Below are positions 22,838 to 35,137 of a stretch of 35,137 nt of DNA, in pieces. Under the pieces are notes generated by a model, which was given only the letters and a program-made list of their open reading frames with translations, ran no database searches and was not told the origin of the DNA. This DNA comes from K189A clade bacterium. Lineage in GTDB: Bacteria; Pseudomonadota; Gammaproteobacteria; Pseudomonadales; Azotimanducaceae. How positions within the stretch are numbered: the stretch's first letter is position 1; each line of letters opens with the position of its first letter. The position numbers and the translations under genes were made by a program. The stretch covers positions 1 to 35,137 of the forward strand of contig JABBBA010000010.1 in NCBI GenBank assembly GCA_018607685.1, written 5' to 3'.

Positions 22838-22865
22838 TTGACCTTTAAATTGAAAGGCATATGAT
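22838..22865 (+). promoter_or_regulatory. Sigma70-like promoter (TTGACC-16 nt-TATGAT) in AT-rich spacer upstream of the ABC genes
   Basis: TTGACC at 22838-22843, 16-nt spacer, TATGAT at 22860-22865. This is the only near-consensus promoter I could see in the 440-nt gap. Confidence 0.45.
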
Positions 22866-22905
22866 ACCCGCCACCCAAAGAACCGAAATAGTGTAAAAAA
22901 GTTTA

Positions 22906-23034
22906 ATGAAAAATTTCTTATTCAACATGTGTCAACCGATCGCGTATAGCGCTACGCCCACGGGAGACGTACGCCTGTCGTATGTTGCAAGTGCACATTT
23001 TGAGAAAAATGGTACCGATATTCCCATAACCTGA
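22906..23034 (+). CDS. Candidate 42-codon small ORF in the ABC leader (MKNFLFNMCQPIAYSATPTGDVRLSYVASAHFEKNGTDIPIT)
   Basis: ATG..TGA lies between the predicted promoter and the terminator. It is below the ORF-track cutoff, so I translated it by hand. No convincing Shine-Dalgarno, so weak. Confidence 0.2.
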   Translation: MKNFLFNMCQPIAYSATPTGDVRLSYVASAHFEKNGTDIPIT

Positions 23035-23090
23035 CGAACACATAACAAATTCGGAAGGTTGAAGATTTAAGGCCTTCCGGAGAAAAATTA

Positions 23091-23132
23091 AAACCCCGGT
23101 AGTCTTTTAGATAAGCACCGGGGTTTTTTTTT
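23091..23132 (+). terminator. Rho-independent terminator/attenuator 28 nt upstream of the ABC start codon
   Basis: AAACCCCGGT (23091-23100) pairs with ACCGGGGTTT (23117-23126) across a 16-nt loop, followed by a run of 9 T. It is preceded by a second hairpin, CGGAAGG/CCTTCCG (23052-23079). Confidence 0.7.
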
Positions 23133-23159
23133 ACCCCGACACAACTGGAGGGGAGAGCG

Positions 23160-32122: not shown

Positions 32123-32143
32123 TACGTAACGGGAGATATTCCA

Positions 32144-32767
32144 ATGAAACAGCTTTTGTCACTTTTTATTTTATTGTCAGTTTGCTCATCAGGGTACGCA
32201 GCAACCTCGGTCCCGCAGTTGCAAAATGGCTGGGCGGTAGCGAACTACGAATTACAGGACGATGAACAGGATCAGGCGTTTGAACAGTTGATAGAGAAAG
32301 CATCGAACGCAGTTGCGATGGAACCGAACAATGCAGAACTGCTGATCTGGAAGGCTATTATCGAAAGTACTTATGCGGGAAAAGCTGGTGGCCTGAGTGC
32401 ACTTAGCCTGGTTAAGGCGGCCAGGGCTGATCTCGAAGCTGCAATGGAAATTGATCCAATGGCGCTTGATGGCTCTGCCTATACCAGCCTTGGTGCGCTT
32501 TACTATCAAGTACCGTCGTGGCCTATCGCATTTGGTTCTTCGAAAAAGGCTCGCAAGCTGCTCGAAAAGGCGATTGAAGTTAATCCGGACGGTATTGATT
32601 CCAATTACTTCTACGGGGCGTTTCTGGTGGAGGAAAAAGACTATGAATCAGCCAGGCAGGTGCTAACGAAAGCAATGCAAGCAACCGCAAGACCCGGTCG
32701 TGAACTCGCTGATACGGGCCGGCGTGCGGAGATCAGTGAGTTACTCAGTCAGTTGGATGAAAGCTAG
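32144..32767 (+). CDS. Secreted TPR-like helical repeat protein
   Basis: Sec signal MKQLLSLFILLSVCSSGYA-A, GGGAGA SD. Helical repeats of TPR type (AELLIWKAIIE.., SLGALYYQ.., ARKLLEKAIEVNP, YFYGAFLVEEKDYESARQVLTKA). Confidence 0.7.
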   Translation: MKQLLSLFILLSVCSSGYAATSVPQLQNGWAVANYELQDDEQDQAFEQLIEKASNAVAMEPNNAELLIWKAIIESTYAGKAGGLSALSLVKAARADLEAAMEIDPMALDGSAYTSLGALYYQVPSWPIAFGSSKKARKLLEKAIEVNPDGIDSNYFYGAFLVEEKDYESARQVLTKAMQATARPGRELADTGRRAEISELLSQLDES

Positions 32768-35010
32768 AACGAATAGAACAGGTCGAGAAATGGGGCAATT
32801 GGCAAAGCTTCCCTGTCAGAATCTTTCAACAGGTCGTTAGACATCTCATACTCGGTGCCGATTACGTTGCTACGGTTGAACAGATTGGTAACGCCAACTT
32901 CGAGTCTGAGCTTACTCTGGTTGAAGTCCCACTGTCGCATGCCCTTTAGGTCAACCGTGAGGTAGTGGGACAAACGACGATCGTTGCGAGTAGGCTGTTC
33001 AGCGTTTCCTGAAGGGTCCAGTGACAGCTCGGTCGTCGGCCAGCCACTGTGGTAGGTAGACTCAACGGCCACCTGCCAGTTATGAAATTGCCTGGACCAA
33101 CCGATGTTCGCAGCATGTTTCTGGTCCGAGCTTCGTCGGACCCTGTTTCCGTCAATGGTTTCTTCGACCTCTGCACGTGTGTAGTTCAACCAGAACTCAT
33201 TTCTTCGCCAATCTCCGGAAACCGACAACTCGATGCCCTTGGCTACCACCCTCGAGGGGTCAACCAGCGTTCGGTCTACCTGAAGCTCTGGAACGATAGA
33301 AAGAGGGTCCGTCAGGTTCTCGAAGTAAAACTCCGGTTCGTCAGTCACTTTTCTGTAAGCTTCTATCTTCAGGTCAAGGTGACTGAATGACTGCTTGTAG
33401 CTCAACACATAGTGGTTTGCTTTCTGTGGGCGTTGAAACGACTGGATGCCGTCACTCGCGTCCAGTTCATGGATGCCCTGGGACTGGGAAAACCTTCCCA
33501 GTCCAATTCGTAGCTCTGCCGCTGAAGGAAAGCGGTACAGCAGGTTCAGTCTCGGTGTTACCTGTTTCGACCATCCACTCGACAGGTAGTCCTGAGTATC
33601 CATTCTGAGACCTGCCTCTACATAAAGTTGCTGCAACAGTCGGTGTTTATATGAGACGAAAGCAGCCAGTTGCTGACCGGTTTCGGTTTCCTCGAACCGG
33701 CGTGTCTCCGGTCGTTCGAAGTTTGAAATGTTCGTGAATCGAGGGTCGATGCTGAGCACAGAGCGAAACCCATACTCAGCGTCCAGATATCGGTAAGATG
33801 CGCCGACGTTAAGCAGGCTATTCCCGAAATCATATTGCCGTGCATGTTCCAGCGTGTATACACGAAACTCCTGATCATCAGCGAGCGAACCTGTCACCAT
33901 CCCGGGGTTGCTGACGAATCCTTGACGATCATCTTTGATTGCCGTAAATCCGATTTTTGTCTCTGTCGTTGGCCCGTCCTCCCGTTCTCGACGGTAACTC
34001 ATCCATGTATAAAAACTACTGAAGGAGGAGTCCATATTCTCTGTATTGCTTGAATTGTTTATTGAAAGATCGTCTCCAAACCAAAGGGTATTTAAGGTAA
34101 AGGTTCTTTCCTCATCGATATTGAATTGATACTGGATGTGTATATCACCAAAAGTGGGTGTACCGAGGTCGTGCTCTGCGGCATCAAGAAAAAGGTCAAC
34201 GGTACTTCGCCTAAGGCTGATCACGAGGCTGTGTCGGTTGGAAGAGAGAGTCTGCAAATAGGAAGCGGTGTACAGACCAATTCCCAGTTCCTTTGAGTCC
34301 TCAACCGTTCCAGGGGCCATTGTATTGAGGACGGTAACGCCACTCAGTCGATCGCCGTAGGTCGCGGGGAACCCCCCTGTTAGAATATCGATGGAATCGA
34401 TCGTCCGGCTATCAATGACGGAAAACAATTGGTTGAACTGGTGGAGATGAAATGGATCGTAGAGCCTCATTCCATTGAATGAAATCAGCATTTCTTTTTC
34501 CCGACCACCTCTGATCGAGGACCTCGCGGAGACCCCGTTGTTTGCAGACCCCGGTAGCCTGCCGGAGACCCGAAGAGCGTCATTAGCGATGGCAGGTCTC
34601 TTCGAGAGGTTTTCATGATCAAACGATAAGCTATTACCAATGTGCGCCATTTGAAATTTATGCGCGCTCGCGTTGACCACAACTTCCTGAATAGTGCCGT
34701 AATTGTATGGCGTCGGCTCCGGAGGCGGAGCCTTTGCTGGCGTCTGGATTGAAACGACCAGATATGAATCGTCCTGTGTGGGTTTTAGCTCAAGGCTGTA
34801 GGCCGTCAGTGCCGTTTGAATCTGTTCCAGCGTAATGGGGGATTCGTTGTCGAAGGTGACCTGGTAATAGGGGCGAACCAGCGCTGAGCTGAACAGTATT
34901 TTGTATCCGGCAGAGTTGGCTGCCTGCAGGAAATCAACCAGCGACCGGGTGACTTCGGCGAAGGTGCTTAAAGACAGGCACCCGAAAAGAATTAGGATAC
35001 ATCGATACAC
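32764..35010 (-). CDS. TonB-dependent transducer (TonB-dependent receptor with N-terminal STN signalling domain)
   Basis: Signal peptide. STN-like LVDFLQAANSAGYKILFSSALV...LEQIQTALTAYSLEL, plug domain (..RSSIRGG.., IDILTGGFPATYGDRLSGV), a long beta-barrel and terminal ..LFYSF. Confidence 0.9.
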   Translation of the reverse strand: MYRCILILFGCLSLSTFAEVTRSLVDFLQAANSAGYKILFSSALVRPYYQVTFDNESPITLEQIQTALTAYSLELKPTQDDSYLVVSIQTPAKAPPPEPTPYNYGTIQEVVVNASAHKFQMAHIGNSLSFDHENLSKRPAIANDALRVSGRLPGSANNGVSARSSIRGGREKEMLISFNGMRLYDPFHLHQFNQLFSVIDSRTIDSIDILTGGFPATYGDRLSGVTVLNTMAPGTVEDSKELGIGLYTASYLQTLSSNRHSLVISLRRSTVDLFLDAAEHDLGTPTFGDIHIQYQFNIDEERTFTLNTLWFGDDLSINNSSNTENMDSSFSSFYTWMSYRREREDGPTTETKIGFTAIKDDRQGFVSNPGMVTGSLADDQEFRVYTLEHARQYDFGNSLLNVGASYRYLDAEYGFRSVLSIDPRFTNISNFERPETRRFEETETGQQLAAFVSYKHRLLQQLYVEAGLRMDTQDYLSSGWSKQVTPRLNLLYRFPSAAELRIGLGRFSQSQGIHELDASDGIQSFQRPQKANHYVLSYKQSFSHLDLKIEAYRKVTDEPEFYFENLTDPLSIVPELQVDRTLVDPSRVVAKGIELSVSGDWRRNEFWLNYTRAEVEETIDGNRVRRSSDQKHAANIGWSRQFHNWQVAVESTYHSGWPTTELSLDPSGNAEQPTRNDRRLSHYLTVDLKGMRQWDFNQSKLRLEVGVTNLFNRSNVIGTEYEMSNDLLKDSDREALPIAPFLDLFYSF

Positions 35011-35032
35011 TGAAGAGCCTGAGAATTGTGGC

Positions 35033-35137
35033 TTAGCGGGTTATATCCACCATGATAACGTTTTCAGGCGCATCCACCAGTCGCAGGTCAGTGATCTCCA
35101 GAACCTGCTTGAGTGATTCTCTTGCGCTGACAGCTGG
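35033..35137 (-). CDS. FecR-family anti-sigma/sensor protein, C-terminal end only
   Basis: Reverse frame gives PAVSARESLKQVLEITDLRLVDAPENVIMVDITR-stop. It resembles FecR C-terminal ends and sits 22 nt upstream of an STN-type receptor, the canonical arrangement. Confidence 0.55.
   Translation of the reverse strand, partial: PAVSARESLKQVLEITDLRLVDAPENVIMVDITR

Follow-up and report, generated by a model that had tools for sequence, protein, structure and literature searches.

Does a biosynthetic operon that opens with a so-called thermostable hemolysin gene make a compound that the outer-membrane receptor encoded beside it senses? The question is raised by a stretch of 35,137 nucleotides from a K189A clade bacterium (Gammaproteobacteria, Pseudomonadales, Azotimanducaceae; contig JABBBA010000010.1), the whole of which we call the window. 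Within 12 kb it holds a pair of ATP-binding cassette (ABC) half-transporters, a Baeyer-Villiger monooxygenase (BVMO) divergent from a five-gene operon and, convergent to that operon, a TonB-dependent receptor preceded by a FecR-like gene. The original prediction, which had read all of these as a single metallophore or signal system, gave a gene inventory that we recover in full, each gene in its place, by open reading frame listing and by Pfam and NCBIfam scans of the window. As one system the locus does not hold together, given that the ABC pair belongs to the chromosomal backbone and the BVMO to particular lineages, so that the whole is not a co-inherited unit. The reading that we favour, at somewhat better than even confidence, is an island that joins an operon for an acyl-amide to a dedicated cell-surface-signalling module, the product of the one being sensed by the receptor of the other. 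Its in silico support comes from gene content, folds, co-conservation, a common promoter motif and the exchange of the module for a two-component system in relatives.

The signalling module and its link to the operon

Of the FecR-like anti-sigma gene the window includes only the 34 final codons, directly ahead of the receptor as originally proposed; translated, they read PAVSARESLKQVLEITDLRLVDAPENVIMVDITR and align with the C-terminal end of the FecR protein (325 aa, PF04773) of the related locus L001, and complete FecR genes are present in L001, L004, L088 and L092. The gene for the extracytoplasmic function (ECF) sigma factor had been placed just past the window end, where the contig, 37,786 nt in all, continues for about 2.6 kb. 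The relatives agree with this placement: the sigma gene is immediately upstream of FecR in every relative examined, L001 and L088 included. L088, which has 82-84% DNA identity to the window and the same gene order, ABC pair and BVMO included, reads in turn a sulfatase-family membrane protein, the ECF sigma factor (178 aa), FecR (330 aa) and the receptor. The sigma factor is not FecI-like by NCBIfam. The three-gene module converges on the operon in L001-L004, L008, L088 and L092, and is divergent from it in L010.

The receptor itself resembles an outer-membrane transducer. Its AlphaFold2 (AF2) model (pLDDT 82, from a 31-sequence alignment) comprises a signal peptide, an N-terminal domain, a linker, a plug and a beta-barrel, and the top matches of the whole model in the PDB are FoxA, FecA and FpvA, all transducers. 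Residues 19-87 are modelled as b-a-b/b-a-b-b at pLDDT 80-90 and are followed by a disordered linker at residues 91-127; this N-terminal domain is conserved across all family members. Likewise, E109, V112 and S115 of the TonB-box-like segment are invariant or nearly so in 31 homologues. The receptor thus likely carries a transducer-type signalling domain, recognised by modelled structure rather than by sequence. The STN domain named in the original prediction finds support in the predicted structure and fails as a family match: Pfam STN has no match on the window receptor, its N-terminal 120 residues included, and reaches one of 16 homologues, at E=0.11, while a PDB profile search with the N-terminal domain found nothing.

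Module and operon are inherited together. When the first 320 residues of the receptor were searched against 5.8 billion proteins, its subfamily proved to be small, with about 23 full-length members at >=42% identity, and at least 11 of these stand on contigs size-matched to contigs with homologues of the heme-oxygenase-like diiron enzyme (HDO) of the operon. The co-conservation that had been suggested as a check is there: receptor and operon are adjacent throughout the window's clade, and the adjacency of module and operon persists down to 27-46% receptor identity, in two arrangements. Could the two nevertheless be chance neighbours, adjacent yet functionally unrelated? They are convergent and not co-transcribed, and the sigma gene is outside the window, all of which a chance neighbourhood would allow. 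Against it stand the persistence of the adjacency over this range of identity, the size-matched contigs of the receptor subfamily and a common motif that is specific to ECF-type loci, and we regard such a coincidence as very improbable.

That motif is bipartite, CGAATGATT-N15-TC(C/T)NAC, and in L001, L004, L008, L012, L088 and L092 it precedes the sigma gene as well as the operon; it occurs additionally before the receptor in L004 and before a methyltransferase gene in L092. In the window it has a single match on the two strands, against 0.2 expected per shuffled window, and this match is the candidate promoter of the operon (Table 1). A looser pattern returned scattered chance matches within genes and was then tightened. 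The tight pattern yields 14 matches in ECF-type loci, all of them preceding the sigma gene, the receptor, the operon or the L092 methyltransferase gene, and six scattered matches in 79 non-ECF loci (1.45 Mb), none preceding the operon. No sigma-70-like promoter was found on the plus strand at the operon start. The original prediction had proposed a search for a sigma promoter ahead of the operon, the BVMO and the ABC genes; a motif was found ahead of the operon and of the relatives' sigma genes, and the window scan found none before the BVMO or the ABC genes. The sigma module, we conclude, very probably controls the operon.

Two related loci add observations on the reach and the origin of the module. 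In L092, a fourth ECF-type motif (18406-18434) lies in the 3' end of a sulfatase gene and precedes the methyltransferase gene and a Kdo/lipopolysaccharide (LPS)-kinase-like gene; the ECF regulon of that lineage may reach LPS-related genes. In L010, the divergent module and operon have one common intergenic region (7744-7980), the receptor is only 27% identical to that of the window, and a FastTree analysis puts the locus apart from the main ECF-type clade. L010 may be a second recruitment of the sigma module.

Sensor modules of the related loci

A question follows, what senses for the operon where this module is missing? GTDB species genomes scanned with the HDO alignment gave 80 loci in Gamma-, Beta- and Zetaproteobacteria. 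In about 60 of the 80, genes for a PmrA/QseB-like regulator and a QseC/PmrB-like kinase come after the operon on its strand. A direct repeat, YTTAAK-N5-NTTAAK, is found within 300 nt upstream in 39 of 61 two-component-type loci versus none of seven ECF-type loci, its background rate being 0.006 per 300 nt; the box of the two-component-type operon, CTTAAG-N5-CTTAAG, is of the PmrA type. A tree of ligase and HDO places the window together with L001, L004 and L012 in a single clade (100/100) that falls within the two-component-type loci, and a FastTree analysis including L008 recovers the same ECF-type clade with support 1.0. Judged from these sequences, the sensor module is swapped: in the window's clade a two-component system has been replaced by ECF sigma factor, FecR and receptor.

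Members of the two-component type are mentioned in the literature. The thermostable hemolysin region of Vibrio, termed dth or delta-VPH, has DthC (VCA1110) adjoining the hemolysin gene (PMC12208996), and a plasmid cluster of Pseudoalteromonas carrageenovora comprises QseBC, an iron transporter, two acyl-CoA synthetases and a thermostable hemolysin (PMC6262041). In the literature searched these are the only mentions, and no paper connects either an HDO or an ECF module with the hemolysin family PF12261. The two-component version, of the Vibrio dth type, has the five genes in the same order as the window and likewise begins with PF12261; it differs in its PmrA/QseB-like regulator and kinase, in its CTTAAG-N5-CTTAAG box and, often, in a further module. 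About 20 two-component-type loci extend into a cupredoxin, an EfeU-like permease and a secreted protein without a family. In L018, for example, a Cupredoxin_1 protein, a distant EfeU/FTR1-like permease (NCBIfam EfeU 4e-9) and a secreted protein of about 240 aa follow the kinase (14124-15941). These genes, transcribed in the same direction as the operon, look like a metal-uptake module. The two-component-type kinases have no conserved ExxE-type iron motif in their periplasmic part.

Another gene accompanies the operon under both regulator types. It encodes an LtaS/OpgB-like membrane-anchored 'sulfatase', orthologous among the loci (38-52% identity). The L092 copy diverges from the operon, has a near-match to the ECF motif, GAATGATT-N15-TCAAAC, and is accompanied by the methyltransferase and Kdo-kinase-like genes. 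In the window's own genome the gene probably sits just past the window end, after the sigma gene.

The operon and its proposed product

The five genes are closely packed and their order is kept in nearly all of 87 related loci (tblastn). The first two overlap by 4 nt (29244-29247) and the second and third by 11 nt (30691-30701), and 21 nt separate the genes of the short-chain dehydrogenase/reductase (SDR) and the tetratricopeptide repeat (TPR) protein.

Table 1. Features of the locus, with positions in the window unless another locus is named
Feature	Position	Strand	Basis or remark
ABCC-like heterodimeric ABC half-transporter pair	23160..26822	+	PF00664 and PF00005 in each; judged outside the system
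Type I Baeyer-Villiger monooxygenase	26919..28526	-	Fingerprint FKGNTYHTGQWP at residue 157
Candidate ECF-type promoter of the operon, GAATGATT-N15-TCTGAC	28604..28632	+	Motif match
Proposed transcription unit	28604..32767	+	Candidate ECF promoter and five translationally coupled genes
GNAT-fold acyltransferase, Pfam T_hemolysin PF12261 ('thermostable hemolysin')	28606..29247	+	E 8e-38
Acyl-AMP/CoA ligase, ANL family	29244..30701	+	PF00501 4e-45, AMP-binding_C_3
Heme-oxygenase-like diiron enzyme, uncharacterised subfamily	30691..31368	+	Haem_oxygenas_2 PF14518 5e-29
Short-chain dehydrogenase/reductase	31304..32122	+	PF00106 3e-37
Secreted periplasmic TPR protein	32144..32767	+	TPR Pfam matches, predicted signal peptide
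TonB-dependent transducer-type receptor, 748 aa, GTG start, convergent to operon	32764..35010	-	Plug PF07715
Signalling-type N-terminal domain of receptor, residues 19-87	34750..34956	-	AF2 model
TonB-box-like EVVVNAS, residues 109-115	34666..34686	-	Between linker and plug
3' end of FecR-like anti-sigma gene, last 34 codons	35033..35137	-	Gene continues past the window
LtaS/OpgB-like 'sulfatase'	L001 16085-18034; L088 6339-8258; L092 16451-18445	- (L001)	Also in L047, L050, L070, L075, L076 and L087

By sequence the first protein matches PF12261 and no other family (no NCBIfam, PDB-sequence, Autoind_synth or NAS-family match). Its AF2 model (pLDDT 87, residues 1-25 disordered) finds its best PDB folds, by Foldseek, among the acyl-homoserine lactone (AHL) synthases TofI, MesI, LasI, BjaI and RpaI and the N-acyl amino acid synthase FeeM, at E 1e-7 to 1e-5 and a TM score of about 0.55-0.6. 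On the strength of this model, the 'thermostable hemolysin' of the window appears to be a mislabelled LuxI/FeeM-like acyltransferase. The protein has the GNAT (Gcn5-related N-acetyltransferase) fold in common with FeeM and with the CoA-dependent LuxI-type synthases BjaI, RpaI and MesI, and an adjacent acyl-CoA ligase suits a CoA-dependent donor; unlike them, it belongs to PF12261 and not to Autoind_synth, is 12-15% identical in sequence, lacks a LuxR partner and is joined by HDO, SDR and TPR genes. The annotated start of the gene, ATG 28606, falls within the -35 element of the proposed ECF promoter. Because the motif overlaps this ATG and the first 25 residues are both disordered and unconserved (the N-terminal 30 residues of the annotated protein are without conservation among homologues), the true start is probably GTG 28663/28666 or ATG 28699. 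GTG 28663/28666 has GGAAG 6-9 nt upstream, and the later starts give a protein of about 182-194 aa, as in L004 and L008.

The second protein has MenE, a fatty-acyl-CoA synthase and a feruloyl-CoA synthetase as its nearest solved structures. In the third, H45, H46, H49, E78, E79, H82, E136, H167, D171 and H174 are invariant among 18 homologues; judging from the alignment, they are residues of the metal-ligand type. Its nearest PDB entry and only significant one is 3dde, of unknown function, AetD and MboA following weakly at E 0.03-0.07. The protein thus belongs with UndA, BesC, SznF, AetD, MboA and CADD to the PF14518/TENA-like helical fold family with invariant His, Glu and Asp, and differs from the characterised HDOs in having this one significant PDB relative. 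The SDR scores 275 bits against NCBIfam PRK09072, over the cut-off. Its long frame from 31304 overlaps the HDO gene by 65 nt. Since family matches begin only at residue 26, the start is probably ATG 31379 (MNLEESRILITGATGG), which leaves a gap of 10 nt after the HDO stop. The TPR protein, the fifth gene in nearly all related loci, has a predicted cleavable signal peptide, MKQLLSLFILLSVCSSGYA/AT, and weakly resembles, at 7e-11 and below threshold, the sterol-binding outer-membrane protein and lipid carrier BstC.

Transcripts of the operon may already have been sampled. One public marine metatranscriptome holds two contigs that are 100% identical to the ligase gene (29242-29455 and 29492-29691); the rest of 26800-35137 is represented there by short, partly fitting pieces, and the operon 5' end is not covered. 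This suggests marine expression of the operon, carried-over DNA being another possible source of the contigs.

The chemistry, the identity of the ligand and any role of a metal we infer from these enzymes and from their setting. Given the LuxI/FeeM-like GNAT fold and the adjacent ANL ligase, the operon would perform an acyl-CoA-dependent N-acylation: the ligase would convert a (fatty) acid to an acyl-CoA, the GNAT protein would move the acyl group to an amine or amino acid, HDO and SDR would tailor the product and the TPR protein would handle it in the periplasm. An N-acylated small molecule is the probable outcome. Signalling would start with the binding of a ligand to the transducer, whose N-terminal domain would act through FecR to release the ECF sigma factor; the sigma factor would then transcribe its own sigma-FecR-receptor operon as well as the biosynthetic operon, from the CGAATGATT-N15-TC(C/T)NAC promoters. 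In an autoinducing loop the operon product, possibly as a metal complex, would be the ligand. Pyoverdine is a known case in which a cell-surface-signalling sigma factor drives biosynthesis, and it is because of the analogy with the pyoverdine loop that we favour the product as ligand, an identification that, by this analogy, comes a little short of an even chance. That the product is a metallophore is doubtful: the siderophore-signalling architecture and the metal-uptake module of two-component-type relatives speak for it; against it, the Pfam and NCBIfam scans of the operon found no nonribosomal peptide synthetase (NRPS), no NRPS-independent siderophore (NIS) synthetase and no other known chelator-forming enzyme.

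The comparison with characterised systems runs in both directions. As in FecA/FecR/FecI of E. coli and FpvA/FpvR/PvdS-FpvI of P. aeruginosa, a receptor with an extra N-terminal domain, a FecR-family anti-sigma factor and an ECF sigma factor stand together and a bipartite sigma promoter precedes the targets; as with PvdS, a biosynthetic operon is among these targets. Unlike in those systems, there is no recognisable Pfam STN, no FecI-like sigma factor and no Fur box; sigma, FecR and receptor look like one autoregulated operon, and the operon targeted is small, non-NRPS and unaccompanied by an ABC uptake system.

Several points weigh against an island whose product is sensed by its own receptor. 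The ECF sigma gene lies outside the window and is placed there from relatives, the signalling domain of the receptor escapes recognition by Pfam STN and by PDB profile, and the operon promoter is a motif-based candidate. Upstream of the sigma gene or the operon the best Fur box matches, 10-13 of 19 positions in a consensus scan only, are those of random 200-nt windows, and this lack of a Fur box above background contrasts with classical siderophore signalling systems. No exporter or inner-membrane importer is conserved in the ECF-type island. Finally, an envelope-lipid output would agree at least as well as a secreted ligand with the co-conserved LtaS/OpgB-like 'sulfatase' and with the LPS-kinase-like gene that L092 has in the same regulon.

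These last points lead to a different account, namely that the module, or the PmrAB-like system in its stead, senses a foreign chelate, a metal or envelope damage, and that the operon makes a membrane aminolipid or acyl-amide which the TPR protein ferries to the outer membrane beside the LtaS/OpgB-like transferase; the product would then not be the ligand of the receptor. Such envelope remodelling would agree with the PmrA/PmrB-like nature of the regulator replaced and its PmrA-type box, with a 'sulfatase' that stays under either regulator type and in L092 has its near-match motif, methyltransferase and Kdo-kinase-like genes, with the sub-threshold similarity of the TPR protein to BstC, and with the failure to find an exporter or a Fur box. 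On the other hand, FecR-partnered TonB-dependent transducers normally sense a transported chelate or nutrient, and the known example of such a sigma factor driving biosynthesis, pyoverdine, concerns a self-made siderophore. The receptor subfamily accompanies the operon in every context examined, which suggests a ligand specific to the operon, and where about 20 two-component-type operons extend further they do so into the cupredoxin/EfeU-like metal-uptake module and not into a lipid A enzyme. We consider envelope remodelling unlikely, if worth keeping in view, and continue to favour the island of acyl-amide operon and dedicated sensor.

Extent of the island: the transporter pair and the monooxygenase

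How far does this island extend? Ahead of the ABC pair (ABC1, 23160-25034; ABC2, 25038-26822) there is a sigma-70-like promoter, TTGACC-16-TATGAT, at 22838-22865. Homologues of ABC2 are 70-81% identical across marine Pseudomonadales, a higher conservation than that of the operon proteins. In the window, in L089 (of the L004 genome), in L090 and in L091 the pair is flanked by the same backbone genes, luciferase-like, metallo-beta-lactamase (MBL), thioredoxin lipoprotein, glyoxalase and SDR before it and fumarylacetoacetate (FAA) hydrolase, Ysc84, RdgC and Ccm after it. L090 and L091 have this backbone without the operon; in the L004 genome 1.9 Mb separate the pair (3.99 Mb) from the operon (2.10 Mb). 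The site between ABC2 and the FAA hydrolase gene is occupied in the window, L088 and L092 and empty in L089. Because the ABC pair keeps the same backbone neighbours where the operon lies elsewhere or is absent, operon and sigma module are, on this comparison of sequences, an island inserted after ABC2.

None of 87 operon loci outside the window's subclade has the ABC pair, and the original proposal that it exports or imports the product is rejected, given that it is not co-inherited with the operon. The pair does resemble YbtPQ and IrtAB in consisting of two half-transporters of the type IV (exporter) fold with one degenerate ATP site: ABC1 has a Walker B sequence, LVLDD, without the catalytic Glu, and ABC2 is without LSGGQ. 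Unlike YbtPQ and IrtAB, it is a backbone pair that is not co-inherited with the operon or the receptor and does not co-occur with cognate siderophore genes. Its nearest NCBIfam models, MRP/ABCC, CydC and type I secretion, are all far under their cut-offs.

The BVMO is a proper type I enzyme, with Rossmann motifs GAGFAG at residue 13 and GGTWYWNRYPGARCD at 42-56, the FxGxxxHxxxW[P/D] fingerprint, and PtlE as its best NCBIfam match (3e-85, under the equivalog cut-off). It is full-length only in the window and L088. L001-L003 retain a 46-codon remnant beside an intact operon; in L001 this remnant of the BVMO 5' end (7684-7824, minus strand) corresponds to window positions 28388-28526, and from this lineage the ABC pair and the remainder of the BVMO (window about 22720-28270) are deleted, the operon and its promoter being kept. 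In L092 the island occupies the same site, and where the window has the BVMO there are other genes. The BVMO is therefore discarded as an obligatory tailoring enzyme and as the fixed part of the system for which it had been taken; at most it is, in our judgement, a lineage-specific and optional accessory. On its strand it is preceded by a sigma-70-like promoter of its own, CTGACA-17-AATAAT (28581-28553, minus strand). Overlapping that promoter, between BVMO and operon, is a palindrome, TGGTCA-N7-TGACCA (28545-28563), which may be an operator of the BVMO rather than of the operon.

In its fullest form the original proposal would have the operon make a non-NRPS chelator that the BVMO tailors, the ABC pair exports or re-imports, and the receptor, FecR and ECF sigma factor sense as a ferric or other metal complex. 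The receptor/FecR/ECF architecture with siderophore transducers as its best structural matches, the sigma motif ahead of the operon, and the cupredoxin and EfeU-like permease of two-component-type relatives are all consistent with it, and HDO enzymes can make N-oxygenated metal-binding groups. The neighbours that it enlists count against it: a conserved backbone pair that is 1.9 Mb off in L004 and missing from all other operon loci, a BVMO lost in L001 with the operon intact, and neither of them under an ECF motif. Add to this a sigma factor that is not FecI-like, together with the negative searches for a Fur box and for NRPS, NIS or known chelator-forming enzymes, and the complete metallophore system becomes improbable. 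The ABC pair and the BVMO are instead a caution for the calling of gene clusters, as they mimic cluster members and are not co-inherited with the cluster.

What would the favoured island of operon and sensor mean? Pfam continues to class PF12261, 'thermostable hemolysin', as a toxin; in the present locus the family supplies the opening enzyme of an operon that is widespread and for which the literature searched describes no product. The variant in the window, with an outer-membrane transducer, an anti-sigma factor and an ECF sigma factor in place of a two-component sensor and a recognisable sigma promoter on the operon, offers one promoter, one sigma factor and one receptor as a simple experimental handle on product and signal. 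The variant likewise serves as a clean example, from nature, of sensor modules swapped on a fixed biosynthetic cassette. In the most specific form of the idea, which we advance tentatively and hold to be unlikely as it stands, the transducer would be the receptor for a self-made acyl-amide derived from a LuxI-fold enzyme, free or as a metal complex, autoinducing through the ECF sigma factor, and the same compound would be sensed elsewhere by a PmrB/QseC-like kinase. If true, sensing by that kinase would span hundreds of other Proteobacteria, the compound would represent an undescribed class of signal or metallophore with two interchangeable receptor types, and the 35-year-old 'thermostable hemolysin' family would be reassigned from toxin to synthase.

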